Assembly (NCBI GenBank): GCA_024679065.1
Contig: JAGIQG010000030.1
Span: 15,624,001 to 15,688,000, forward strand
Reading direction: 5' to 3'
Origin: Sphyrna mokarran
Taxonomy: Eukaryota
Length of the DNA stretch: 64,000 nt
The first letter of the stretch is position 1. Every line of letters starts with the position of its first letter. This document shows positions 4,712-64,000 of the stretch, in pieces. The notes beneath the pieces were generated by a model. It was not told the origin of the DNA. It ran no database searches and worked only from the letters and a program-made list of their open reading frames with translations. The position numbers and the translations under genes were made by a program.

Positions 4712-4786
4712 GACAGTAGATTTTACAATTGTTCTTTATAATCATGGTAGACAGTAGATTTTACAATTGTTCTTTATAACCATGTA
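4712..4786. repeat. Tandem duplication, 38-bp period, 2 copies
   Basis: gacagtagattttacaattgttctttata occurs exactly at 4712-4740 and 4750-4778. Confidence 0.9.
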
Positions 4787-5156: not shown

Positions 5157-5400
5157 AGAATAGAATCCGTACAGTACAAAAGGAGGCCATTTGGCCCATA
5201 GAGTTGTATCAACCACAATCCCACCAACGCTGTTTCCTGTAACTCGCATTTACCCTGTTAATTCCCCCGACACCAGGGTCAATTTAGTGTAGCCAATCAT
5301 CCTAAGCCACACATCTTTGGACTGTGGGAAGAAACCAGAGCACCTGCAGGAAACCCACACAGACCCAGGGAGAAAGTGAAAACTCCACAAAAACAGTAAA
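5157..5400 (-). mobile_element. HE1/V-SINE-like tRNA-derived SINE, 5'-truncated
   Basis: Contains the reverse complement of the V-domain core (cacatctttggactgtgggaagaaaccagagcacc...gaaacccacacagac) plus the agaatagaatcc tail shared with other copies. Confidence 0.8.
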
Positions 5401-10049: not shown

Positions 10050-11780
10050 CAAAGAAAATATTAAAGAATATTGGCAGGTAAAAATCAAGGAAAAACCAAA
10101 AAGGTTTTATCGGTACATTAAGGGCAAGAAGATAATTAAAGGGTGGAGCATCAGGGATGTACAAAGTAATCTATGCATTGATACACAAGATGTGGGCAGG
10201 ACTTTTATTGAGTATTTAGCTTCCGTTTTCAAAAGGAAAGGGAGGATGCAGACATACTAGTTAAAGAGGACGACTTTGAAATATTAGATACAATCAACAT
10301 AAGGACAGAGAGGGAATACTGACATCCTCGAAAGGGGTTAAATCACCAGGGTCAAATGGATTGTATCCCAGGCTGTTAAAAAAAGGAAACAGCAGATGCC
10401 AAGGATCATTTCTCAATCTTCACTAGCTACTGCCAGGTTACCAAAGGATTGGGAATCCGTGAACATTGTATCATTGTTTAAAAGGTAAGCAAGTTAGCTC
10501 AAATATTTGTAGGTAGGTCAGTCTACTTTTAGTGGTGGAGAAATTACTACTATTAATTCAGAAAGGATAAACTATCACTTGGAAAGGAATGGAGTAATCA
10601 GGGATAGTGAGCATGGTTTTAAGAATAAGTTGTGCTGTAGGAATTTTTTGAGTAAGTGATAAGGATTGATGAAGTAGTGCAGTGATGTGGTCTACAGGAT
10701 TTTAGGCACTTGACAAGGTTTCACTCAGCAGACTGCTAAGAAAAGTAAAAACCCATTGGATAAGAGGGAACGTGGCGAGTTGGATCCAAAATAGCTCAGT
10801 GACAGGAAACAAAGGGTAATAATCTATGGATGATTTTAAGAATGTAAAAAGCTCAGCATTGGGTCCCCTGCTGTTTGTTATACATATTATTTGGACTTAA
10901 ACGTGGGAGGCATGATTGGGAGAGTTGCAGATGACAAAATCAGATGTGTGATTAGCAGTAAAGAGGACAGCTGTGGATCCAGAATGATACAATGGTTTGC
11001 TTGAGTCGGCAGAAAAGTAGCAAATGAAATTCTCTGAGAAAGTGTGAGATAACACATTGGACAGGACAAACAAAGAAAGGGAATGCTCATTAAATCCCTA
11101 CAGGAAGCCATTCAGCATCGAGGCTGCATCCACTCTGAAAGAACATCTTACCCAGGCCTTCTTCCCATCCTGTCACCGTAACGCCATGCACTTACCATGG
11201 CCAATCCATCCAACCTGCACATTTTTGCACAGAGGGAGGAAACTGCAGCAGCCAGATCACGCCCACACAGACATGGGGAAAACGTACAAACTCCACATAG
11301 TCACCTGAGGCTGGAATCAAACCAGGGTCCTGGCACTGAGAGGCAGCAGCAGTACCAGTGTGCCACCCAACTCAACAAACAGAAGGATATTGGGAGATGT
11401 CGAGGAAGTGAGACATCTCAGAGTGCATGGACACAGGTCCCTGAAGGTGGCACGACAAGTGGACGAGGTGTGAAGAAAGCATATAGAATGTATTCTTTTA
11501 TTGAGAAAAATATAGAATACAAAAATAGGGATAAAACAATGGAACTGTATAAAACACTGGTTAGGCTGCAGCTGGAATTTGCTGCAGGGATTGACCGTTG
11601 AGGCAGAAACTTTCAACTTTTTTAAAAGACATCGGGATCTGCATTTAAAGTGTGAAACCGGCAAGGGTTACAGACCAGGTGCTGAAGGTGGGATTAGAAA
11701 AGGTGGCTAGTTTTTAAACCAGCCAGCACAGACATGATGGGATTAAAACCTTCTCTCTGTGCCTTAACTTTCCTATGGTT
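10050..11780 (+). mobile_element. Degenerate CR1 LINE ORF2 fragment with 3' tail, interrupted by a SINE
   Basis: Frameshifted CR1 ORF2 remnants (KIKEKPKRFYRYIKGK; IEYKNRDKTMELYKTLVRLQLE; ttgcagatgaca FADD-like stretch). Confidence 0.8.
11090..11370 (-). mobile_element. HE1/V-SINE-like SINE nested in CR1
   Basis: Contains the reverse-complement SINE core (cacagacatggggaaaacgtacaaactccaca...gggtcctggcactgagaggcagcag). Confidence 0.75.
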
Positions 11781-12057
11781 TTATTAATATTCCCAGTTTA
11801 ATATTTATAAAAATTAACTGCAAGGTTTTAAAAATCATCTCCTTTAGGAGTCTGAGCTGAAGGTTAACAGAAATCTGTACAGAGTAGCCTAATCCTTAGC
11901 TGATCCTAACCAGAAAGGTCACACTCAAATTAAAAAAACTGACGGACAAAGGAACCTTCAGCAGCACAAGACATGTTATTCTGTGGTGGATAATGGAAAA
12001 GTCTCCTCCACCTATAAATTGTATAACTTAAACAATTTATTATGTTAATGATCAGTT

Positions 12058-12372
12058 ACATAGTCACATAGAATCCTACAGTGCAGGAAGCCGCCATTTG
12101 GCCCTTCAAGTCTGCAGTGACCATAATCCCACCCAGGCCCTTTACCCACGCATTTACCCCAGCTCGACTCCCTGGCACTAAGGAACAATTTAACATTGTC
12201 AACCAACTAACCCGCACATCTTTGGAGTGTGAGAGGAAACCAGAGCACCCAGAAAAAAACCCACGCAGACATGGGGAGAATGTGCAAACTCCACACAGAC
12301 AGCGACCCAAGCCGGGAATCGAATCCGGGTCCCTGGCACTCTGAGGCAGCAGTGCTAACCACCGTGCTGCCC
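12058..12372 (-). mobile_element. HE1/V-SINE-like SINE, near full length
   Basis: Has a tRNA-like head on the minus strand (ggcagcacggtggttagcactgctgcc; B-box ggattcgattccc), a V-domain and a CR1-like tail (...ggattctatg). Confidence 0.88.
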
Positions 12373-12493
12373 TACCAGTTCTGGTCCAACTTTCAATCGT
12401 CAAGTCAGAGACGTTATACCACATTGAAGCATTTTTACGAAATGATCAGTTCAGCCTCGATTCGGAGCGATGCTTGAAAGTGGATCCACATAC

Positions 12494-12739: not shown

Positions 12740-13962
12740 CCTGATGAAATGTATCCCAGGACACAGAGGTTCAGGAGGAAATTGCGGATTTCCTAGCACG
12801 GACATTTGAATCATTGACAGTCACAGGTGAGGTGCCTGAAAACTTGAGTGGCAAATGTTGTGTCTATGTTTAAGGGTTGCAGGGAAAAGCCTGGGAACTA
12901 CAGGCCAGCAAGCCTCATAGTTGTGGTGGGTAAATTGTTGGAAGGTATTCTGAGAAACAGGATCAACAGGCATTTAGAGAGGCAAGGACTGAACAGGGAC
13001 AGTCAGCATGGCTTTGAGAATGTAAAATCATGTCTCATGAATTTCGTTGAGATTTTGAAAGGGTAACTAAGATGATATAAGAATTAGGAGCAGGAGTAGG
13101 CCATCTGGCCTCTCGACCCTGCTCCACCATTCAATAAGATCATGGCTGATATTTTTGTGGACTCAGCTGTACTCAAGTAGATGAGGGCAGTGCAGTTGAT
13201 GTTGTCTACATGGACTTTAATAAGGTCTTTGACAAGGTATTGCATCATAGGTTGTTGCGCAAGATTAAATATCACAGGATCCAGAGTGAGGTAGCCAATT
13301 GGATACAAAATTGGCTTGATGACAGAAGACAGAGAGTGGTTGTCAAGAGTTGTTTTTCAAACTGCAGGCCTGTGAACAGTGATGTACCTCAGGGATCACT
13401 ACTGGGTCCACTGTTATTTGTCATTTATATCAATGATTTAGATGAGAATTTAGGAAACATGGTTAGTAAGTTTGCAGATGACACCAAGATTGGTGGCATA
13501 ACACACAGTGAAGAAGATTATCTTCGCTTGCAATGGGATCTTGATCAATTGGGCCAGTGGGCTGATAAACAGCAGGCTGAGTTTAATTTAGATAAATGCG
13601 AAATGATGCATTTTAATAGATCGAACCAGGGCAGGACTTACTCAGTTAATGATAGGGAGTTGGGGAGAGTTACAGAACAAAGAGATTTAGGGATACAGGT
13701 TCATAGCTCCTTGAAAGTGGAGTCATAGTTGGACAGTGTGATGAAGAAGGCATTTGTCATGCTTGGTTTCATCGTTTAGATCAATTTGCAGATACAATAA
13801 TGACATTTAAGGGATGTCTTGACAAATCCACGAATAGGATGGGAATAGAGGGATACGGTGCCCAGCAGAGTAAGGAGTTTTAGTTCAGTTAGGCAGCACG
13901 GTTGATGCAGGCTTAGAGGAGTGAAGGGTCTGTTTCTGTGCTGAAATTTTCTTTGTTCTTTA
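12740..13962 (+). mobile_element. CR1 LINE RT fragment with 3' tail
   Basis: ORFs 12848-13066 (PGNYRPASL, QHGF) and 13210-13728 ([36 protein letters not shown]). An inverted CR1 3'-tail piece is inserted at ~13075-13170. Confidence 0.92.
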
Positions 13963-26235: not shown

Positions 26236-27439
26236 TCTTTATGATTATCCAATGCAATATCTCAGCACTCCTTGTGGACTACTATATCTGTATATAGTTT
26301 AAAGTCCTTGTTCTCTTTGTGTATGTTTTAAGTTATTCATTTGGGATTCAACAAGAAAAGAAATATCCTTGGAACCACTCAGGTCTTCAAGACTGAAAGA
26401 GGTCAAACCCCCTGTAAATGCCTAATGTAGAGGACTAACTTAAAACAAAGTGTTGGGAAAACTCTCAAGTCTGGCAGCATCTACAGAGTGAGAAAGAGTT
26501 AATGTTGAGTCGAATATGATTCTTCTTCAGAACAGGAGGACAGGATTGTCTGGGTTTGTAAGACGAGAAGCAGACCAAAGCAGGAGAGCCTTTTATAGTT
26601 CAAAGCTTGAAACTCAACAGCATTTTAAATTCAAAAGGATTTGGGATCTTCTCAAATCTCATTTATCTTAGTAAATTGGGATATGTCAGAATTATATAAT
26701 GGAGGAGTCAGCCATTTGTGCCTTTAACAAGCTAATTAGTCCCACTTCTCTACTTATTCCTATAGCCCATTTTCCTTCCGTATTTTGAAATTTTCTACTG
26801 AATGCTTTCAGTGCACTTTCAGGCAGAGCATTCCAGTGTATTCATTGCAACCTCTATTCTTTGAGAACAAAATTACAAGCAGAAAGAGGCTGCCTTTTCC
26901 TCTTCAGCAGAACAGGATTTCAGGTCAGCAAGTTGCTCAGAAATTCAATTACAACGTGGAATGGAAAAGACCACACAGCTACAATAAATAACTTTTCCTC
27001 TTAAGAGAATCAGAGGAAAATGGAAAGATATTTAGTAAAGCGATCAGGAGCAGAAAAATGGCCTCTTTCTGCACCATAACAATTCTGTGAATGAGTGTAG
27101 TGGCAGAATAGTTCAAAGTTTGCACAAATCAGATGGATTACCACTCTCTTTCCTGTACATTCCCAGGCTGGTTTCTGTGTTATAGATGAAATTCCACAGA
27201 GTACAAATAATTTAAAAGTGAGAGCCATAGGATATAGCAGAAAGCAACACGCACATCAAAACCATCAACATCAGGACAGAAGACAACAATCTATTCAGAC
27301 AAAAATGAACAGCAGATGAGTCATTACACTGAACATGGAGCAGTCCGCATTGGTGAAAGTTCTAATTGTTTCACATACCCCATGTCAGCGGCATTTATCC
27401 AACAGAGTCCAGAACAAACTGCTCATCGTATAGAGAGCC

Positions 27440-29710
27440 ATTCTACGTACAATTAGAAGCAAAAGAGGTATCACAGAGACGTGGCTGCAAGGGGATCGGG
27501 GTTGGGATCTAAATATCTAAGGATGTGTGTCCTATCGAAAGGAGAGATAGATGGGCAAAGGGGGAGAGATTGCATTGTTAATAAAAAATGAAATTAAATC
27601 GATAGCAAGAAGTGATACATGATCAGAGGGCATAGAATCTCTGTGGATATAGGTGATGAATCACAAAGGTAAAAAGACCCTAATGGGAATTATGTACAGG
27701 CTTCCTAGCAGTAGTCAGGATGTGAGGCAGAAAATTAATCAGGAGCTATAAAAGACATATAAAAAAGGCAATATTACAATAATCACAGGGGATTTCAATA
27801 TGTAGGTGGACTGAGAAAATCAGGTAGGTAGTGGATCACAAGAAAAGGACTTTATAGAATGTCTAAGAGGTGTTTTTTTTGGAGCAGCTTTTGACAGAGC
27901 TACTAGGGAACAGGCAATTCTGGATTTGGTGATCTGTAATGAGGCAGACTTGTTTAGGGAACTTAAGGTGAAGGAACCCTTACGAAGCAGTGACCACAAT
28001 ATGACAGAATTTACCCTGCAGTTTGAGGGGGAGAAGCTGGAGTCAGATGTAATGGAATTACAATTAAATAAAGGTAACTATGAAGACATGAGAGAGAGCT
28101 GGTCAGAGCTGAATGGAAAGGGACCCTAGCAGGGAAAAAAATGGAACAGCAATGGCAGGAGTTTTTGAAAGTTATTCGGGAGGCACAACAGAAATTCATC
28201 CCAGGGAGGAGGAAACATGCTAAGGAGAGGAAGAAGCATCCGTGGCTGATGAGGGAAGTTAAGAACAGCATAAAAACAAAAGAAAAAGCATACAAAGTGG
28301 CGAGGATTCGTGCAAAGCAAGAGGACAGAGAAGCTTTAAAAGTGAACAGAGAACAACTAAAAAGACAATAAGAGGGAAAAGAAATAAAATATGAATGTAA
28401 GTAGCTAGTAATACAAAAGGAAATAGGAAGACTTTTTTTCTCAATATATAAAAACAAAGAGATAAAAATAGCCATTGGACCACTGGAAAATGAGACTGGA
28501 AAAGGAATAATAGGAAACAAAGAAATAGCAGAGGAACTGAACAATTACTTTGCATCAGGCTTCACGGTGGAAGAGACAAGTGGAATGCCTGAACTCCAGG
28601 AGAGTGGGGGGCATAGGTGAGTGTAGTGGCCATCACTAAGGAGAAGGTTCTAGGGAACCTGAAATGTCTGAAGGTGGATAAATCACCTGGATCAGATAGA
28701 CTGCATCCCCAGGTTCTAAAAGAGATAGCTGAAGAAATTGTGGAAGCATTGGTGATGATCTTTCAGGAATCACAAAGCAGGGAGGGCCTCAGAGGGCTGG
28801 AAAGTAGTTAACGTAACACCACTGTTTAAGAGAGGGAGGCAGCAAACATGAAATTATAGGCCGGTTAGCCTGACTTTGGTCATTGGCAAGATTTTAAAGT
28901 CCATTACTAAAGATGAGATCACGGAATACTTAGAAGTGCAACATAAAGTAGGACTGAGTCAGCACAGCTTTTTCAAGGAGGGGTCATGTGTGACAATTCT
29001 GTTAGAGTTCTTTGAGGATATGACAAGGAAGTTGGATAAAGGAGAACCAGTGGGCCTGAATTATTTAGATTCCCCTAAAGGTCTGCACAGGAAACTGTTA
29101 AGTAAGTTAAGTGCCCATAGTGTTAAGGGTAAGATCCTGGCATGAATAGAGGATTGGCTGACTAGCAAAAGGCAGAGAGAGGGGATAAAGGAGTCTTTCT
29201 CAGGATGGCAGCCGATGACTAGTGGTGTGCCTCAGGGGTCACTGCTGGGACCACAACCTTTCACAATATACATTAACAATTTGGAGGAAGAAACTGAAGG
29301 CACTGTTACTAAGTTTGCAGATGATACAAAGATATGTAGAGGGACAGGTAGTATTGAGGAAGTGGTTGGAGGGTGCTGCAGAAGTACTTGGACAGGTTAG
29401 AAGATTGGCAAAGAAGTGACAGATGAAATATAATGTGGAAAAGTGGGAGGTTATGCACTTTGGAAGGAGGCATAGACTATTTTCTAAAAGGGAAAATGGT
29501 CTGGAAATCAGAAACACAAAAAGACCTGGGAGTCATTGTTCAAGATTCTCTTAAGGTTAACATACAGATTCACTCAGCAGTTAGGAAGCAAATGCAATAT
29601 TAGCATCCATGTCGAGAGGGCTAGAATACAAGAGCTGGGATGTACTTCTGAGGCTGTATAAGACACTGATCAGACCCCATTTGGAGTACTGAGAGCAGTT
29701 TTGGGCCCCT
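27440..29710 (+). mobile_element. Long degenerate CR1 LINE ORF2 (APE endonuclease through RT)
   Basis: acagagacgtgg (TETW), GDFN-like ggggatttcaat, SSDHN, LKVDKSPGSDRLHPQVLKE and [11 protein letters not shown]...KFADDTK, with multiple stops and frameshifts. Confidence 0.93.
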
Positions 29711-42959: not shown

Positions 42960-45160
42960 GGGATGGCAGACAGGCTAGATAAACTTAAATCCAGACTCAC
43001 TTTCCAAGAAGCACTGAAGGACTGCTATGTGCTCCATGTTTCACGGAGACATGGCTCACTCCTGCTTCATGGACAATGCCCTACAACCAGAGGTCCTCTT
43101 AATCTATCAAATAGACCATACAGTGGCCTCAGGCAAGGCTAGGGAAGATGGGGTCTGCTTTCTAATCAACATCTCGTGTTGCCTAGATATAGCAACACCG
43201 GCAATTTTCTGCATCCCAGATCTAGAATACCCGACCATAAATTCGGCTCCTACCCTTTCCACAGAAGTTCACCTCCATTATCCTGATGGCAGTTTACATC
43301 CCACCTTATGTGGACATGAAGATCAGACTGGACAAAATATACACCACTACAAATAGCCTTGAGATGAAACATCCCGAGGCCTTGTTCATCATGATCAGGG
43401 ACTTCAATCAGGCCAAGCTCAAAAATGTACTGGCAAGTTACCATCAACACATCTCCTCTTTCAGCAGAGGTACAAACATCTTAGACCATCGCTACACAAA
43501 TATCAAACATGCCTATTGCTCTATCACCAGCCCACACTTTGGCAAAGCAGACCACAAGGCTGTGCTCCTGCTCCCAGCTTACAAGCAAAAACTGAAGCGG
43601 GAGAATCCATCAAAGAAAATCGTGCAATGCTGGCCTGAGGAATCGGATGACTTCCTACAGGGCTGCTTGGAGTCAGTGGACTGGTCAGTACTTAACTCTG
43701 CGACCAGCCTGAACTACAGTAGCTGACTGCATTAGTAAGTGTGTAAAAGATTGTGTGCCGAAGAAGCAAATCCATCTGTTCCCCAACCGGAAACCATGGA
43801 TGAACAGGGATATCCACTGCCTTCTCAAGTCCAGGTGTTCTTGAGGTGTTCAAATCAGGCGACATTGACCTATACAAGAAAGCAAGATACAATCTAAGGA
43901 GATTCAAAGACAGTACCAACCAAGCTAGAGTCCCAGGCTAGCCACACTGACCCCTGCCGACTATGGCAAGGTCTGCAAGACATAACAGGCTACAAGATGA
44001 AAGTATGTAAAATTGTCGGTTCCAGTGCACCTCTCCCCAATGAGCTCAATGCATTCTGCATCTGTTTTGAGCAAAAGTTAAGCGTAAACATGCCCTCCAA
44101 ACTGAAAGATTCAGATGAACCTGTATCTGGGGTCATCACTGCAGATGACCTCTCTCTCTAGATCCCAAACTTCTTAACTCACAGATCACAATCAGTAAGG
44201 ATAAAAGCAATAACCCCTCCTCCATGATCATTTTCAACATTGGTGTCCCACAAGGCTGTGTTCTCAGCCCCCTACAATACTCTTTATACACCTACAACTA
44301 TGTGGCCAAATTCCATTCCAATTCAATTTTCAAGTTTGCTGATGACACCATTGTAGTGGGTCAGATTTCAAACAGTGACTAGACAGCGTACAGGAAAGAG
44401 ATAGAGAATCTGGTGAATTGATACGATAACAATAATTTCCCCTCAATGTCAACAATGGAGATAGTCATCGACTTCAGGAAGTGTAGAGGAGGACATGCTC
44501 CTGTCTATATCAATGGGCATGAAGTAGTCATGGTTGAGAGCTTCATGTTTCTAGGTGTCCTGATCACCAACAATTGTCCTGGTCCCCTCTTGCCAACATT
44601 ATAGTTAAGAAAGCCCACCAATGCCTCTACTTTCTCAGAAGATTAAGGAAATTTCACATGTCCGCTATGACACTCACAAATTTTTACAGATGCAGCATAG
44701 AAAGCATTCTTTCTGGCTATATCACAGGTTAGTATGGCTCCTGCTCTGTCCAAGATCACGAGAAACTACAAAGATTGTGAACAAAGCCCAGTTCATCATT
44801 CAAACCAGCTTCCTATCCGTTGACACTGTCTATACTTTTTGCTGCCTCGAGAAAGCAGCCAGCATAATTAAACACCCTACGCACTCTGGACATTCTCTTT
44901 TTCACCTTTCTCCATCAGAAGAAAGATACAAAAGGACATGTACCAACCTACTCAAGACCAGCTTCTTCCCTGCTGCCATCAGAGTTTTGAATGGCTCTAC
45001 CCCGTATTAAGTTGATCTTTCTCTGCACCCTAGCTATGACTGTAACACTATATTCTGCACCCTCTCCTTTCCTTCTCTACATATGGTATGCTTTGTATAG
45101 TGCACAAGAAACAATACTTTTCACTGTTAATACACGTGATAATAATAAATCAAATCAAAA
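42960..45160 (+). mobile_element. Degenerate Rex1/Babar-clade LINE (APE endonuclease, partial RT, 3' tail)
   Basis: GVCFLIN, AVYIPP, (G)DFN, ILDHRY, ADH and FPNRKPW motifs; ggtgtcccacaaggctgtgttctcagcccc (GVPQGCVLSP); aagtttgctgatgacacc (KFADDT); tail aataataaatcaaatcaaa. Confidence 0.85.
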
Positions 45161-45164
45161 ATAA

Positions 45165-47290: not shown

Positions 47291-48545
47291 CGAGTGCAAA
47301 AAAGCCAAAATGTGTCCCCAAAACGCACAGACAGAATCAGAAGATTCTACAAATGGCACATTGTTTCTGAACTGAAAAAAATACAAAAGTCAGGATTTGA
47401 AGCTGGAATTATATAAAATATTGCTCAGGCCACAGCTGGAATTTTTGTGCACAATTGCAGGAAGAACATAATTGTTCTGGAGAGAGTGCAGAGGAGATTT
47501 ACAAGAATGTTGCTAGGATTTGAAAATTGCAATAATGAGGAGAGATTGGAAGGGCTAGGTTGTACCAGGCACTGCCAATCTGGCATCTCGGTAATGCCCA
47601 CCAGCATCTTAACAATGTCCAGTGGGCAGTGCCAGGATGCCTATGAGGCAGAGTCTATAGGACAGTGGGACTTGAAGAGGCAGCCCAATCAGTGAGGGGG
47701 GAAACCACTGAGTACTTTGCCTGTGATCAAATCAAAAGGGGCGAGGGTGTATTGGTGGTGGAAGGACCCACTGCCATTCTGCAGGTGATTGAATCAGGGA
47801 GGGAGGGAGGGGGGGCCAACAGGAGATCCAGCCAGACCCGTCATTCCAACAAGCTGAACTCCTCCTCACTGGGCAACCAAAGATCGGGAGTGTGGGATGG
47901 CAGCGGAGTTAATAATTGAGAAGCAGCTCTTCAAATAGAGACAGAAGCTGCAACACAGCAGTCTGGTGGCACAGTGGTTAGCAGTGCTGCCTCACAATGC
48001 TAAGGGACCCAGGTTCAATTCCGGTCCCAGGTCACTGTGTGGAGTTTGCACATTCTCCCTTTGTTTGTGTTGGTTTTCTCCAGATGCTCTGGTTTTCTCA
48101 CATTGTCCAAAGATATGGGGGTTAGGTTGACTGTACATGCTAAATTGCCTGTTAGTGTCAGGGGATTGATTAGCTAAGGTAAATGCATGAGGTTATGGGG
48201 ATAGGGCCTGAGTGGGATTGTGGTCGCATGGCCTCCTCTTGCATCCGAGATGCCAGATTGGCAGTGCCTGGTACAACCTAGCCCTTCCAATCTCTCCTCA
48301 TTATTGCAATTTTCAAATCCTAGCAACATTCTTGTAAATCTCCTCTGCACTCTCTCCAGAACAATTATGTTCTTCCTGCAATTGTGCACAAAAATTCCAG
48401 CTGTGGCCTGAGCAATATTTTATATAATTCCAGCTTCAAATCCTGACTTTTGTATTTTTTTCAGTTCAGAAACAATGTGCCATTTGTAGAATCTTCTGAT
48501 TCTGTCTGTGCGTTTTGGGGACACATTTTGGCTTTTTTGCACTCG
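47291..48545. repeat. Apparently perfect 301-bp inverted repeat, arms 47291-47591 and 48245-48545
   Basis: The arms are reverse complements with no mismatch seen by eye. Identical peptides appear in ORFs 47447(+)/48389(-) and 47607(-)/48220(+). Confidence 0.97.
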
Positions 48546-48570: not shown

Positions 48571-49579
48571 ACCTCTCGCACTCAGTTTAAAAATGAAATG
48601 CAGATTCATCCAGGCTGCAAATATTCCAGGTGGGGCAGCATTCTACTCGATTTCTCTGCCTTTATACATGTGTGGCTGTGAGTCTATTTTGGTGATGTCT
48701 TGGGATTCCAGACAGGTGGCGTTTGTAATCCAAGTTTCCCAGGAACCAAAACATGTTCTGTCTTTTCTCCGTAAACAATAATGGAACCCTCGATTCCCTC
48801 AGGATGACTTTGCAGTAATCCTTCCATGGAAAACAAGCTTTAACTTGCATAATATTTTGCACTGCAGCTGAGCGCTAAAGGAGCAGTAACTGTGACAGAG
48901 CAGGGCACAGCCGACAGAGATCACATTGAGGATGGTGGGCAGAGTCTGTCGTTTGGAAATGCCATTGGCCAGGTGAAGCCAGCTCTGTTTTTCAGTTGGT
49001 GCTGTGCACCATTGCTGGGGTCCAGATGAGGGCGGCACTGAACTGCTTTCAGACTGATCCACGTGATGTGTGCCTGTTAGTATTTGATGTGGTGGAACTG
49101 GGAGTGCCGTCCAGATGTTGCACTGTCCCAGCAGATGGCTCTGGTCTGGATCTCAGAAACTGACAAGCTTACACCTGAGGAGGCCATTCAGTCCAACAAA
49201 CCTTTCTTGCCCTTTGTTAGGGCATTGAAATCTAAATCTAATGCCTTGTAATTTCCGCAAAGCCCTTTGTCTTTTCCTGCTTCATCACTGTATCCTTTCA
49301 GGGATACAGTGGTTTCTGCTTTAACTATATCCTGTGCGAAGTACTCCCCAGTCCAATAGCCCATGGTGTAAAGACATTTGTCCAAAAATTTCTCCCTGTT
49401 TTAAATCGATGACTCTTCCCAAACAATAGAAATAGTTTTGCTGATTCACCCAATTGAAATCCTTCATCATTGTTCAAAACATGATTAAGGTTCGCAAATG
49501 TCTTCTCAAAACTGTACCCCCCCCATGTCCAATGACATATCTTTGCAGCTTCCTTACACATTGTTTTTCTCTCATAAAA

Positions 49580-49885
49580 TCTTAGAATCTACAGTGCAGA
49601 AGGAGGCCATTTGGCCCATCGAGTCTGTACCAACACAATCCCATCCAGGCCCTATCCCCGTAACTCCATATACTTACCCTGATAATCCCTCTGACACCAG
49701 GGGCAATTTACCATGGCCAATCAACCTAACCCACACATCTTTGGAGTGTGGGAGGAAACCGGAACACCCGGAGGAAACACACACAAACACGGGGAGAATA
49801 TGCAAACTCCACCCAGACAGTGACCCAAGGCTGGAATTGAACCTAGGTCTCTGGTGCTGTGAGGCAGTAGTGCTAACCAATGCCA
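49580..49885 (-). mobile_element. HE1/V-SINE-like SINE
   Basis: Reverse complement of the consensus seen at 52568-52895. Confidence 0.88.
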
Positions 49886-52246: not shown

Positions 52247-52895
52247 ATGGCACAGTGGTTGGCATTGCTTCCTCACAGCGCAGGGACCCAGGTTCAATTC
52301 CAGACTTGTCAGTGTGGAGTTTGTACGTTTATCCTCCCCATGTCTGCATGGATTTCCTCCAGCTGCTCCATTTCCTCTCACAATCCAAAAGACTTGTTGG
52401 TTAAGTGCATCGGCTGTTCTAAATCCTCTCTGTGTACCCAAACGAACTTGGGGATGGTGGCGACTTGGGGATTTTCACAGTAGCTTCATTGCACTATTAA
52501 TGTAAGCCTATTTGTCTCACTAAAAATAAATTTCATGTATTTGCTCACTCAAATTGTCTAAATCAAGGTGGCACGGTAGCACAGTAGTTAGCACTGCTGC
52601 TTCACAGCTCCAGACACCTGGGTTTGATTCCTGGCTTGGGTCACTGTCTGTGTGGAGTTTGCATATTCTCCTCATGTCTGCACACGGTTGCTCTGGTTTC
52701 CTCCCACAGTCCAAAGATGTGTGGGTTAGATTTATTGGCCATGCTAAAAATTGCCCTTAGTGTCCTGAGATGTATAGCTTAGAGGGATTAATGAGTAAAT
52801 ATATAGGGATATAGGGGTAGGATCTGGGTGGGATTGTGGTCAGTGCAGACTCAATGGGCCGAATGGCCACTTTCTGTACTGTAAGGGTTCTATGA
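52247..52895 (+). mobile_element. Two adjacent V-SINE-like SINEs (52247-52530 and 52568-52895) with different tails
   Basis: Both have the tRNA-like head and V core. The first ends cactaaaaataaa; the second ends ctgtaagggttctatga. Confidence 0.85.
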
Positions 52896-53714
52896 TAAAT
52901 CACCATTTAAAATGTTCATCCTTACTTTCAAATCCTTCCATGGCCTTACACTTTCTAACTTTGTATCTCCATCAACCTCATAATCTTGTGAGAACTCTCC
53001 AATTTTGAGCATCTCCAATTTTAATCACTGCAGCATTAGCAATCGTGCTATCAGCTGCCTTAGCCCTAAGCTCTGGAGTGCATTCGCTAAACCACTACAC
53101 CTCTGTACCCCACTTTATCTTTTAATGTACCCATTAAAACATTTCCTTGTCCAATCTGTTATGTCTCTGTCCTTATATGTCTTACAAGTCTTCTGTGAAA
53201 CATCTTGGGACATCTTAAGGCACTATCGGAACTATATAAATACCAGTTGTTATTGTTGTCATAGGTCCCTCTTCTATGATCCTAGCGTCTTGGATTGTGT
53301 CTGTTGTCCTGATTCTTACCCTGTGAAGATGTGTGGGTTAGTTGGATTGGCCATTCTAAATTGATCCTAGAGTCAGGGGAATTGCAGGTAAATATGTGAG
53401 GTTATGGAAATAAGGCCTGTGGTCAGTACAGACTTGATGGACCAAATGGCCTTCTTCTGTATTGTAGGAATTCTATGACTCGAAGTATTTAGAATTGAGT
53501 GAATTGAGGGTCACATCCCAAACTGCAAAGTTCATCAGGTTCCTGTTCTTCAGACAATATTAGCTTTTCTTTTCACCACAGAAACACTGCAAGCTCCTTC
53601 TGATGTTTAATAGGAGAAAAGTAGAAGTGATGTAAATTCAAGACCAACCAGATTGCTGCGCACAGTCCTGATCTCCATGTTCCAAAATGCTCCTGAAGGC
53701 ATCATTTTAGAATA

Positions 53715-54979: not shown

Positions 54980-55750
54980 TAATTTGATTTGATTTATTAT
55001 TGTCACATGTACTAACATACAATGAAAAGTATTGTTTCTTATCCGCTATACAGGCAAAGCATACCGTTCATAGAGAAGGAAAGGAGAGAGTGCACAATGT
55101 AATGTTACAGACATAGTTAGAGTGTAGAGAAAGATCAACTTAATGCGAGATCGGTCCATTCAAAAGTCAGCAGCAGGGAAGAAGCTGTTCTTGAGTCAGT
55201 TGGTACGTAACCTCAGGGTTTTTCCCAACAGAAGGAGGTGGAAGAGAGAATGTCCGGGGTGCACCAGAGGTCCTTAATTATCCTGGCTGCTTTGCCAAGG
55301 CAGTGGGAAGAGTAGACAGATTCAATGGATGGGAGGCAGGTTAGTGTGATGGATTGGGCTACATTCATGATCTTTTGTAGTTCCTTGTGGTCTTCGGCAG
55401 AACAGGAGCCATACCAAGCTGTGATATAACCAGAAAGAATGCTTTCCATGATGCATCTTTAAAAGTTGGTGAAAGTCATAGCTGACATGCCAAATTTTCT
55501 TAGTCTTCTGAGAAAGTAGGAGTGTTGGTGGACTTTCTTAACTATAGTGTTGGCATGAGGGGGGATTGGGACAGGTTGTTGGTGATCCAGACACCTAAAA
55601 ACTTGAAGCTGTGGATCCTTTCCACTTTATCCTCGTTGATGTAGACAAGGATATGTTTTCCTTTACACAATGACAATCTCCTACATTTTGTTGACATTGA
55701 GGGAGAGATTAATTATTATTGCCTCACCAGTTCGCCAAATTCTCTATCGC
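54980..55750 (-). mobile_element. Rex1/Babar-like LINE 3' portion
   Basis: Minus ORF ESILSGYITAWYGSCS...LQKIMNVAQSI; reverse complement of 44390-45160. Confidence 0.87.
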
Positions 55751-56261: not shown

Positions 56262-56478
56262 CTGATTGTAAATAATCCTATGACCCTGGGCTAAATACCC
56301 CCTGATACTGGGCTGAATAACTCTCTGACCCTGGACTAAATAATCCCCTGCCCTCAGACTAAATAACCGCCTGACCATGAGCTAAATATCCCCCTGTCCC
56401 TGGGCTAACTGACCCCCTACCCCTGGCCTAAATAACTCCCTGCCCTGGAGTGAAATGGCACCCGTGCCCCTGGGTAAA
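56262..56478 (+). repeat. Degenerate ~23-bp tandem repeat, ~9 units
   Basis: Units resemble ataatcccctgaccctgggctaa. Confidence 0.85.
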
Positions 56479-60740: not shown

Positions 60741-61969
60741 GAATTTCAAACTTTTTGTTCCCATGAAGATTATAGAGAGTGTACCATTTTCAGATTCTCT
60801 GTGGACCTATATTTATCTAACTTTCTAAACAGCATGTTTATGCTATTTTTGTATATGCTAAATAGCATATACATTAATAGGAATTCGCAGTGATAAAAGA
60901 CAAAGGTCATCATGTTCACCTCCAATTAGCCATGTGATCCAGCGATATTGAAGTTATTGACTAATCACTGATCAATTTTTATCAATTAGTTTACAGCAGA
61001 CCCATAAATGAGGTTAGGAAAAGCCCCCAGTTTTGGAGAGTTTTAGAAGTAATAGTTCCAAAGTCACCTGTTTCTCACAAGCACATTCTACTCACTACAC
61101 ATCATGGTCTACATTACTCCGTCTTTATAAAATACTGAAAAGAACATTCAGATAATCTCAATTTTTTTTCCAGTGAGAATTTAAATTTACAGAATTACTC
61201 GTCATTATCCAATCGCTTCATCCCCTTAAATCTATTTCTAGAAGCTTTAACAAAACTGTAATATCGCCTCTATAGCAGTGAGCAGAACTGTACCCATTGT
61301 TCTAAGTACAGTGCATCAATGATTTATAAAGTGGCAGAATTGCCTCATCATTTTGATTCAATGTTACATTTTTATTGCATCTTAACATCAGATTTACTCA
61401 TTTTCATCTAGTATCATTGTAATGATTATTGCAACATCTGTCATTTTCCGTGCACATTTTTTTCTTTCCATTAAAGTAATAGTTTTTCCAGATTTTTTTT
61501 TGTCTCCACATGAAGCACTGCTACTGTCTGTTCATTTCCCAAATCATCTTGTAGCTTATCCTATTCATCTTTGGGGTCTGCAAGCTTAATTGGCTTTGTA
61601 TCGTCTGCAGATTTATCTGTTGTATTTACAACTCCTAAATCAGGACGACATTAAGTAAGAAATCTTAAACCAGTCTCTTGGAGAATCTCACAGATGACAT
61701 TCTCTCTGGCTAGTGATGATTCCTGCACCACCCATCCTGAGGATTCTATCAATCATAAAAAGTTAATATGCATAATAGAATATCTCACCTTGTTTCTATT
61801 GTTATTTTCAGTATCAGCCTTTACAGAGGAGCTATATCAAAGGCCTTACTGAAATTCCACAGGGACTAGATTTCTGTGCTTTAAGAAATTAGTTATGAAG
61901 AATTGATTTGATGAAGCTCACTCTTACATTTTCTATCTAATGTTTATTTCCATTAACTTACTCCCAAAT

Positions 61970-62219
61970 TTAAAAAAAATTATACTTTATTCCATTCCAA
62001 TCCAATCAAATCCAATTCAGAATCCCAGCAAGTTGGGACATTCCTAATCCAAGCTGACAAGACCAGGCTCCAAGGCTTGATCTCATTTGCATCTTAGCCA
62101 AAAGACCGAGATGCTGCTTTAAAAAATTGCTTCAAATGAAGCTAAAATGTAACCTAATGACTTCGACCGAGTACAGCATGTCGATACTACACTTGATCGT
62201 AGCCAAAAGGCCGAGAAGC
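61970..62219 (-). mobile_element. Candidate U2 snRNA-headed non-autonomous retroposon
   Basis: The minus strand begins with U2 nt 4-40 (62219-62183), has a second U2-like unit (62114-62076), and ends gaataaagtataattttttttaaa. Confidence 0.55.
62183..62219 (-). pseudogene. U2 snRNA 5' fragment (nt 4-40)
   Basis: GCTTCTCGGCCTTTTGGCTACGATCAAGTGTAGTATC has one mismatch to canonical U2 and includes the branch-point recognition sequence GTAGTA. The rest of U2 (Sm site, 3' stem-loops) is absent. Confidence 0.92.
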
Positions 62220-63479
62220 AAGAAAGTGGCCTTGGATAGTCTTGTTTTGATGCAAATATGTGACTTGTAACTGAGGGTAAGTAAAAGGTCAACCATATTT
62301 TTGTGCAACTCGAGTCACATAGTATCCAGACTTGGTGAGGTTACAAATGAATTGTTGAAATGTTATTACAACAATTTGATAGCTTTATGATTACTTTTAA
62401 TGATACCAACCTTTTATTTACAAATTATTTTAGCATTCATACTGGCTCAATAAAGTAATGATTATGCTATTGTAACTCAGTTAAAAGACCTAACTGATTT
62501 TTAAACTTTTGACTGTCTTTCAGCTGTTTTCAATCTGTTTTCCCATGATACTTCTTGTAGATTGTCATATTCTTCCCTTGTCGATGTGAGAATAGTTTTT
62601 CAAATTTGAATTTAACTATGACTGTTCCTTCATAATTTACCTCCCATCCAATACAAAAAAGAAAATTCCTCATTTTTCATCCACTCTCCCTCCGAGTGGC
62701 CTTCCTGAGATTAGAGGTTGAGGTGGTGCATGACATTTGTCTACAACACTCCTTAATGAGGCTGCCATTAAAATGGAAGCATGTATGATCACATTGCCAG
62801 ACAAATGTGCAGATTCGTTGGAAACTTATTATTGGACCTATCTTCATTGATTGCAGAGACACTTTGTTCTGGATGTAAGTTATCTGTTCATCATCATTTA
62901 AATTTATGTTGTCTTGATGTCCTTTCACTCTTAGTGCACTGGAATCTTCCAGAAGTTATTAGATTCTGAACAGATGTTTTATACCTCACTTAAAGAATAT
63001 TGGATTCATTTTTACATTTGGGTGACTTCCAGTGTCTGTTGGCAAACAGTCAAATTGAATTTGACTCAGACTTACTTTGGTCTCTGAGACCCATATGAAA
63101 TTACAGAAGTATAGAGAAAGCAAGTGCAAGGACAGGCCATTTAAATCGCACAAGAGTTGAAAAAGCTGATGCTTGTTTGTTGTTGCAGCCTCTGTCCTTG
63201 CCCACATAGTAGGGAGATCAAGCACGTATCATTATCTATATTTACTTCTCAAAGACATTGTTCTATCACTTATTTGATTTGTGGGTACTTGAATCACAAT
63301 CTAATCACTTAATAACATGCTGGACAAGTTGTATTACTGTTTTTTTGCTGTTCCAAGTGTAAGCAATCAATTGTCATGATGGGCATGGTTTTGTTAAATC
63401 AGTAATCCTGGAATAGGAGAATGGATTCTATGCCATATATTCATGACATTCTTTGCAAATTATTTTATTCTTTAATTTT

Positions 63480-64000
63480 GAAAATAATGCCAGAATTTTC
63501 CAGCAGTCTGTAGATCTGGAAGAGTTCCAGTGGATTGGAAGGTGGTTAATGTAACCCCACTTTTTATAAAAGGAGAGAGAGAGAAAATGGGGAATTATAG
63601 ACTGGTTAGTCTGATATCGGTGGTGGGGAAAGTGCTGGAGTCAGTTATTAAGAATGTAATAACAGAGCATTTGGAAAACAATGACAGGATTGGTCCAAAT
63701 CAGCATGGATTCACTAAAGGGAAATCATACTTGACAAACCTTCTGGAATTTTTTTGAGGATATGACCGGTAGAGTGGACAAGAGTGAATCAGTGGCTGTT
63801 GTTTACATGGAATTTAAATAAATTTTTAACAAGGACTCACAGAAGAGATTAGTGAATAAAATTAAAGCTCATGGTATTGGGGATAATGAATTGACTTGGA
63901 TAGAGAACTAGTTGGCAGACAGGAAGCAGAGAGTGGAATAAATGGGTCCTTTTCAGAATGGCAGGCAGTGATTAGTGGGGTACCGCAGGTTTCAATGCTG
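63480..64000 (+). mobile_element. CR1 LINE RT fragment running off the window end
   Basis: DWKVVNVTPLFIKG...GNYRLVSL...QHGFTKGKSYLTNLLEFF. Confidence 0.92.

Follow-up and report, generated by a model that had tools for sequence, protein, structure and literature searches.

We identified a U2 snRNA-headed element of 254 nt on the minus strand (62222-61969, with U2 +1 at 62222) of the 64-kb window, i.e., the whole stretch of DNA that was analyzed. The feature exists, with more structure than first reported, and it rests on one copy. We judge the chances to be about even that this element derives from a U2-targeting LINE, with Utopia a better candidate than Keno, as a non-autonomous unit of the SINEU/SIDE kind transcribed from a U2 promoter. 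Its most distinctive feature is an antisense arm lying against the U2 head, which is absent from the first-pass annotation of this DNA. The element has no coding capacity, with stops in all six frames, and none of the 23 window ORFs of at least 120 aa falls here. Its parts, together with the immediate flanks, are as follows, from upstream to downstream on the U2 strand.

62263..62280, minus strand: PSE-like snRNA core promoter box, -58 to -41 from U2 +1 (62222)
62250..62257, plus strand: exact octamer (Oct1 site), ATTTGCAT on the U2 strand, -35 to -28, off the usual distal position
62183..62222, minus strand: U2 snRNA head, nt 1-40 (Rfam RF00004 and human U2 line by eye)
62152..62179, minus strand: antisense arm, joined by a 4-nt loop (62183-62180) to U2 nt 12-39 (62211-62184), with which it pairs
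62129..62142, minus strand: small perfect 5-bp hairpin (-6.2 kcal/mol, predicted)
62118..62128, minus strand: AA-T6-AAA run that ends the 5' module and repeats the element's 3' end
62076..62114, minus strand: second U2-derived unit, nt 4-33 with three substitutions and one insertion, then nt 24-31 again
62016..62075, minus strand: body, with a small hairpin at 62038-62023
61991..62015, minus strand: five TTGGA-like units, read from the sequence
61969..61991, minus strand: 3' terminus, AATAAA, 4 nt, AA-T8-AAA, Utopia-like by eye
61965..61968, minus strand: 3' flank TTTG, one change from the TCTG remnant of Utopia/Keno, with no more U2 after it
61314..61944, minus strand: decayed CR1-like reverse transcriptase remnant in the flank 3' of the element, on the same strand as the element

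The Rfam U2 model (RF00004) matched 62050-62222 with 48.2 bits, and the head by itself reached 39.1 bits (E 4.6e-7). All 192 positions of the model were aligned above the gathering score, with a T6 run near the position of the Sm site. Compared by eye with the human U2 line of PMC4640811 (S1 Fig), the head shows one mismatch in nt 4-40, at position 24 (62199), and also differs at positions 1 and 3. Both comparisons bear out the earlier description of U2 nt 4-40 with a single mismatch. It had also been proposed that the U2 similarity ends near the Keno/Utopia insertion site; indeed, it stops at nt 40, and the 3' flanks of Keno and Utopia start at U2 nt 39 (PMC4640811, PMC6136364). The 5'-side junction of Utopia (U2 nt 38/39) is therefore found here as well, with nt 39-40 readable as either element or target. 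The remainder of U2, said to be missing after the tail, was found neither in the window at the gathering score nor in 61000-63200 at E-values up to 10. We rejected a full-length variant U2, as the head carries the Rfam score and the sequence beyond it adds only ~9 bits. When the head was removed, the only Rfam match of the element was again U2 (15.9 bits, E 0.38), driven by the second U2 unit, and neither U2 stems II-IV nor a canonical Sm motif was found in the element. An HDV or hammerhead ribozyme was rejected as well, with no ribozyme family among the six Rfam matches (E up to 10) and no core detected by simple descriptors. Five CpGs are kept in +1 to +73 (observed/expected ratio of 1.27, compared with 0.26 for the window), which fits young or protected sequence, and none of 200 shuffles matched the folding of the whole-element RNA (z -3.1).

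The spacer between the two U2 units had been described as ~68 nt of unrelated sequence. Its length (62182-62115) stands, but its unrelatedness does not: positions 62179-62152 are antisense to U2 nt 12-39 and form a hairpin with the head. Specifically, the 28 positions of this hairpin comprise 18 Watson-Crick pairs, 6 G-U pairs, and 4 symmetric mismatches. None of 2000 dinucleotide shuffles of the spacer reached 24 pairs, and 18 Watson-Crick pairs were reached by 5 of 2000; among 1822 tiles of the window, a single one, G/T-rich and of low complexity, formed 24 pairs with the head. The duplex energy was -34.6, compared with -16.1 +/- 3.1 in the shuffles (0/2000). The head-arm region folds with z -4.9 on the minus strand versus -1.1 on the other strand, an asymmetry that is borderline, as 3.6% of simulated decays reached it.

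The differences between the two arms are strikingly one-sided. At 10 of the 10 positions that are not Watson-Crick pairs, the departure from U2 sits on the antisense arm, and none sits on the U2 arm (two-sided probability of 0.002 if both arms had decayed evenly). The hairpin is therefore not a perfect inverted duplication in neutral decay; the U2 arm has been kept as U2, and only pairing seems to constrain the antisense arm. The G-U bias of the antisense arm is suggestive only, and G-U enrichment was rejected as a signal because its probability (0.04-0.25) lies within what transition-rich decay produces. At position 24, the sole base in nt 4-40 of the head that differs from U2 is paired with the arm. 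This speaks against a recent capture of the head from a functional U2 gene and is easier to account for if head and arm travel together in an element. In the predicted fold, the hairpin displaces U2 stem-loop I (pair probability of ~1e-4) and pairs position 35 at 0.998. U2 nt 33-38 recognize the branch point, and the modeled hairpin would bury the splicing-active bases of U2, i.e., those that pair with U6 and those that recognize the branch point.

Upstream of the head, the PSE-like box agrees with 10 of the 12 specified positions (two mismatches) of the vertebrate PSE consensus given in PMC5493778. Matches this good are common in the window (51 in 128,000 positions, with 44.8 expected), and a stricter consensus has 2 matches (1.08 expected). 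The evidence for the box is therefore positional: the chance of finding one in a window of 10-20 nt on the right strand is ~0.004-0.008, before allowing for the four promoter features sought. The PSE has been placed ~60 bp upstream of snRNA genes (PMC4494074) and at -60 to -50 (PMC3544641). The box starts at -58, i.e., at about the ~60 bp upstream expected of a variant U2 gene, and its significance is moderate. Two of the four exact octamers of the window lie within 172 nt here, at -35 and +131 (Poisson probability of 1e-4 to 4e-4, post hoc). No distal element was found near -200 to -250, with no octamer of up to one mismatch from -36 to -388, and the search for a 3' box yielded no exact or well-placed one, only two-mismatch overlaps with the T-run and the flank. 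A perfect 9-bp inverted repeat around the PSE-like box (62254-62320, minus strand) was considered as a tiny transposon and rejected, as 45 such repeats occur in 64 kb. The same stretch shares an 18/19 match with ~12052-12070, beside a SINE end; this match is the top one among 420 tiles and is near background.

The putative PSE-like box at the expected distance fits the earlier suggestion that the element was transcribed from a U2 promoter. If this PSE is real, the DNA goes back to the locus of a U2 gene, and simple retrocopying of an RNA that starts at +1 does not account for it. The companion claim, that the element was retroposed outside a U2 gene, falls short: no PSE from upstream can be present in a copy made from such an RNA.

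At the 3' end, the previously noted tail motif and T/A run were recovered, with AATAAAGTATAA at 61991-61980 followed by T8 and AAA to 61969. A 3' poly(A) tail is absent: AATAAAGTAT is followed by AA, T8, and AAA. In the sequences shown in PMC4640811 (S1 Fig), turtle Utopia families lack poly(A) and terminate in AATAAA, a short T-run, and AAA, and those turtle copies that lie outside U2 sites retain no more of the target than TCTG or TTTG; in alligator and echinoderm families, too, little sequence follows AATAAA and poly(A) is missing. The likeness of our element to the turtle ends is one seen by eye over ~20 AT-rich nt, and the match of the flank, 4 nt long, is weak. The 3'-end motif plus a following TYTG occurs once in the window (0/100 shuffles), and the motif without the flank occurs twice (0.19 expected), both with a pattern that was chosen post hoc. 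Upstream of the AATAAA, nothing in the element resembles reptile Utopia ends. We treat the Utopia-like end as a lead because the motif was shaped after both sequences had been seen and spans ~20 AT-rich bases.

The first-pass annotation had found no target-site duplication. This holds around the whole element, where no shared word exceeds 7 nt and the longest one is not at the junctions, and for the 3' flank, which has none in 1.78 kb upstream. The 3' module alone is flanked by an exact 9-nt repeat, a level reached by 812 of 127,960 window 20-mers (0.6%) and by 5% of the AT-matched ones. A direct repeat between the 3' flank and ~62670-62610 was rejected, as its score of 34 falls within a background of up to 37 in 68 tiles.

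The second, degenerate U2 unit that had been reported lies at 62114-62084, and U2 nt 24-31 are repeated directly after it, at 62083-62076; its local score against the head is 35, with a background maximum of 22 among 486 tiles. This unit is older than the head. It hosts an exact octamer at 62092-62085 and a lengthened stem-loop I, and its predicted fold has a z-score of -4.7, with 408 of 20000 simulated variants folding as well; a strengthened hairpin is suggestive only. The body hairpin is present at 62038-62023 (the sequence quoted earlier was its plus-strand reading), and the repeats described as (ttgga)n-like amount to five units at 62015-61991, below the threshold of Tandem Repeats Finder. 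A longer hairpin of the body is weak (z -1.9, 13/200 shuffles). The pattern AA-T(6+)-AAA has only two occurrences in the window, at 62118-62128 and 61981, and the run at 62128-62118 can be read as a fossil terminus, a target-site duplication, an Sm-like site, or chance.

Three further relationships within the element or between the element and the window were rejected. A second antisense arm in the 3' module does form a 9-bp helix, but one equaled by 254 of 2000 shuffles. Homology between the non-U2 bodies of the two modules was no better than in shuffles, 1731 of 2000 of which scored as well. Finally, a 31-nt likeness of the body to the window's other LINE family occurs in one of three copies and is antisense to the coding strand, with the other two copies at background.

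Next, we compared the element with known systems. The earlier mention of snRNA-headed SINEs in crocodilians is in line with the literature, SINEU being reported only from crocodilians in PMC4494074. Like SINEU-1, -2, and -3, the element is short (<500 bp) and non-coding, with a U2-derived 5' head and an internal oligo-T; the recurrent U2 5' additions of SINEU-1 resemble its two U2 segments with their partial internal duplication, and a probable dependence on a target-preferring LINE is a further likeness (PMC4494074). The differences are as follows. All SINEU groups carry poly(A) tails, and SINEU prefers Mariner-N4 and is tied to Tx1-Mar (PMC4494074), whereas our element lacks poly(A), has a CR1-like 3' flank in place of Mariner-N4_AMi, and resides in a host that looks like a cartilaginous fish. 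No promoter-like sequence was found in SINEU and no antisense arm is mentioned for it in the text of PMC4494074 examined here, whereas the element has a PSE-like box upstream and an antisense arm on its head.

Utopia, an RLE-type LINE of the NeSL clade, shares with the element the junction at U2 nt 38/39 (PMC4640811). The AATAAA, short T-run, and AAA at the end of reptile families and their TCTG-like remnant at non-U2 sites (PMC4640811) recall the end and the TTTG flank of the element, a likeness by eye over ~20 nt and 4 nt, respectively. Utopia differs in encoding a reverse transcriptase and a restriction-like endonuclease over several kb, compared with 254 nt and no ORF here, and in the 20-bp duplications made by reptile Utopia, none of which surrounds the element (PMC4640811). 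Keno, an APE-type LINE of the Tx1 clade, has the same U2 site and is present in fish and other vertebrates (PMC4494074, PMC4640811, PMC6136364). Unlike the element, Keno is autonomous, with APE endonuclease and reverse transcriptase ORFs, and is followed by U2 from nt 39 onward. Elements of the Tx1 clade usually end in poly(A). Having no ORF, the element is neither Utopia nor Keno itself and is at most a non-autonomous derivative.

The SIDEs of R2 are internally deleted R2 copies that, like the element, are short and non-autonomous and, as proposed for the element, rely on the promoter of the target gene (PMC3414825). R2 5' ends pair with upstream target RNA, and target duplications join the 5' end, both of which recall the present anatomy; moreover, 28S sequence helps the R2 cDNA anneal to the target, and 5' extensions are repeated (PMC3774820). 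R2 differs by an HDV-like ribozyme with a stem of ~7 bp in rRNA; here the pairing amounts to a hairpin of 24 bp, and neither an HDV nor a hammerhead core was detected. Tailless or chimeric U2 retropseudogenes are likewise dispersed, 3'-truncated 5' fragments of U2 fused to other sequence, but they sit between target-site duplications with no promoter DNA upstream, and they leave a one-sided antisense arm unexplained (PMC2912911, PMC4494074). Overall, this single copy resembles snRNA-headed or target-promoter-dependent short retroposons. By analogy, it would work like SINEU and the R2 SIDEs; we do not file it under either because it differs from SINEU in poly(A) and host and from the R2 SIDEs in lacking their ribozyme. 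Bipartite non-autonomous LINEs are listed only for RTE, Ingi, Vingi, and R2 in PMC5786205.

The reading as a parasite of a U2-targeting LINE is supported by a head that ends at nt 40, where the Keno and Utopia junctions lie, by the significance and one-sided divergence of the hairpin, by the PSE-like box, by the kept CpGs, and by a 3' end that resembles turtle Utopia ends (motif by eye). It is weakened by the single copy in the window, by the lack of a target-site duplication around the whole unit, by the failure to find a distal element or 3' box, and by the absence of U2 nt 39 onward, which a copy within a U2 gene should precede. Within this reading, a Utopia-type partner is the more likely, at somewhat better than even chances, and a Keno-type partner is doubtful. 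The ancestor would have inserted at U2 nt 38/39, and Pol II transcription from the promoter of the interrupted U2 gene would yield an RNA with U2 nt 1-40 at its start. The 5' end that belongs to the element itself may have become complementary to U2 nt 12-39 and folded back on the head, which could keep the chimeric RNA out of the spliceosome and stabilize its 5' end. The U2 arm might stay identical to U2 because it comes from the target or because it must, like 28S sequence in R2, anneal at the 5' junction to the DNA of the target. An earlier 5' junction, internalized by repeated 5' extension, could survive as a fossil in the second U2 unit. The LINE protein would recognize the 3' end, and target-primed reverse transcription would place copies into U2-like TCTG sites. 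The PSE of this copy needs an extra step, which may have been a 5' transduction, recombination between a U2 gene and a dispersed copy, or loss of the 3' part of U2. This PSE, together with the non-U2 3' flank, is the main point left unaccounted for.

The kept PSE is better accommodated by a tandem arrangement, in which a SINEU-like monomer of ~140 nt (the 3' module 62117-61978, with its own U2 head) inserted, with a target-site duplication of 9-11 nt, behind an older stub of a U2 gene consisting of the PSE, head, antisense arm, small hairpin, and T-run. We regard this as unlikely, although several observations speak for it: the only two AA-T(6+)-AAA runs of the window bracket the 3' module, the exact 9-nt repeat is of a kind reached by just 812 of 127,960 20-mers, and no relationship is seen between the non-U2 parts of the two modules (1731 of 2000 shuffles as good). 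Furthermore, SINEU-1 makes duplications of ~10 bp and SINEU-3 often inserts in tandem around a duplication (PMC4494074). However, such a repeat is reached by 5% of AT-matched 20-mers, the two T-runs differ in length, the downstream run is equally readable as a Utopia-type terminus followed by the target-like TTTG, and two U2-headed pieces 68 nt apart would require a presumed target preference. An alternative that we consider more unlikely still dispenses with a family altogether: the locus would be a one-off chimeric pseudogene, formed when a 3'-truncated U2 retrocopy or gene fragment was joined to unrelated DNA by template switches and fold-back, with the PSE and octamers being chance matches or leftovers. 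The single copy in the window and the frequency of PSE-like matches (51) agree with this, and 3'-truncated snRNA retrocopies and template jumps to snRNAs are common (PMC2912911, PMC4494074, PMC3414825). Yet neutral decay would hit both arms of the hairpin, whereas 10 of 10 changes fall on one; the second U2 unit has diverged further than the first and outperforms 98% of simulated variants in folding; and it would have to be by coincidence that the end is Utopia-like and that the break falls at nt 40.

Of all readings, we find least probable that the locus is a host non-coding RNA gene, descended from a duplicated U2 gene and no longer or never mobile, whose snRNA promoter would drive a structured RNA. 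Its product might be a variant U2-like snRNA or a short-hairpin RNA giving rise to 3'-arm small RNAs against transcripts of U2-headed retroelements. The PSE-like box and octamers would find a ready explanation, as would the Rfam model being aligned over all 192 positions above the gathering score with T6 near the Sm-site position, the fold of the whole RNA that beats 200 of 200 shuffles (z -3.1), and the kept CpGs; variant snRNA genes with recognizable promoters do exist (PMC5493778). Nevertheless, 39.1 of the 48.2 bits come from the head, with 15.9 bits (E 0.38) for the rest, a canonical Sm site, 3' box, and distal element were not found, and the hairpin would block U2 function. A 4-nt loop on a 28-position stem is also unlike typical microRNA precursors. 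Lastly, the LINE-like end of the AATAAA type and the location next to a decayed CR1 remnant are in keeping with an insertion.

None of five parts of the element recurred in the 420 tiles of the window, giving one copy in 64 kb, and no partner LINE was found in the window. Similar U2-like heads with such a tail may occur in shark sequences, which raises the prior for a family only slightly. An exact 23-mer scan of bacterial and archaeal genomes returned 0 matches, a result that says little about a repeat from a fish. Two of the six frames, when translated, had no match in a word-indexed protein set, and an exhaustive protein search gave two weak, unnamed matches of low identity in many stretches; these scans have no bearing on copy number. 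A literature search covering few subscription journals found no description of a U2-headed retroposon in cartilaginous fish, and such a family may already be catalogued.

Beyond the preferred reading as a derivative of a U2-targeting LINE, we tentatively suggest, as something rather less than likely, a cartilaginous-fish family of non-autonomous Utopia-type retroposons that borrowed the U2 promoter and evolved an antisense arm masking their own head. Such a family would be a self-detoxifying snRNA-headed retroposon, and the present locus, with its PSE, would be a source-type copy that directly reveals how snRNA-headed SINEs are transcribed without an internal promoter. How SINEU is transcribed is an open question, as snRNA promoters lie upstream and are lost on retrotransposition (PMC4494074); a PSE-like box before a U2-headed element makes the answer of a borrowed U2 promoter testable. 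The bases of U2 that are critical for splicing all lie in its first 50 nt (PMC4640811), and an RNA with a U2 5' end could disturb splicing unless masked, a problem to which the antisense arm suggests a solution. The host table of PMC4640811 lists no fish for Utopia, and the sections of that paper examined here describe no non-autonomous derivative. Within the literature examined, the family would be the first indication that Utopia occurs in fish and that it has a non-autonomous derivative. Confirmation of a family would mean that vertebrates evolved snRNA-headed retroposons at least twice, and the 3' end would then hint at a Utopia lineage not yet reported from cartilaginous fish; if the copy proves single, the element is a curious pseudogene of little weight.

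The 64-kb window is animal DNA, rich in repeats, and only two Rfam matches in it reached the gathering score: the U2 match and a tRNA-Gln gene. The decayed remnant in the 3' flank of the element aligns over 61944-61500 to a reverse transcriptase fragment of the window (~13125-13596) with a score of 504, compared with 386 +/- 18 in 100 shuffles (maximum 445), and weak collinear tblastn pieces extend over 61856-61314 (E 0.001-0.04 in a 4-kb database). A CR1-like upstream flank was rejected, as its score of 529 lies below the shuffle maximum of 545 and a further search gave no match. The reverse transcriptase fragment itself (13150-13725) belongs to Pfam RVT_1, the one family obtained among 10 frames tested. 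Its named relatives of highest identity are from a stingray (62% over 66% of the query) and the elephant shark (58% and 54%), with birds at 43-51%, a pattern expected of a cartilaginous fish. Long remnants of a CR1-like ORF2, broken by numerous stops and frameshifts, lie on the plus strand at 27300-29500, 13150-13728, and 63490-64000. Apart from the matches of the reverse transcriptase fragment, the CR1-like label of the window repeats rests on motif resemblance.

Several other features of the window were observed. An abundant family of ~300-bp repeats, with copies 70-85% identical, occurs at 5160-5397, 11138-11367, 12067-12377, 32770-33040, 35454-35745, 39436-39668, 47965-48225, 49579-49882, and 52248-52896, among others, and is probably the elasmobranch HE1-type SINE. 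A LINE 3' region is present in three copies that are 76-80% identical (38060-38483, 44400-45161, and 54983-55748); the frame at 44609-45010 within it, which has no Pfam match, resembles a Rex1/Babar-type C-terminus. An inverted repeat of 301 bp (47291-47591 and 48245-48545) is 100% identical within otherwise decayed LINE-like sequence and encloses ~650 bp with a SINE copy; we read it as a very recent inverted duplication or an assembly artifact because other dispersed pairs of >100 bp are 67-84% identical. The intact-looking tRNA-Gln(CTG) gene (37835-37906, plus strand, 68.4 bits) lies at the end of a GC- and CpG-rich island (36400-37800, upstream of the gene) with up to 34 CpG per 400 bp, which contains G-rich tandem repeats at 36416-36987 and 28-bp units at 37451-37557. 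Other tandem repeats include a near-perfect 38-bp duplication at 4712-4784 and a 23-bp unit in 7.9 copies at 56269-56448, and the latter array holds two PSE-consensus matches (56281 and 56372), probably by chance.
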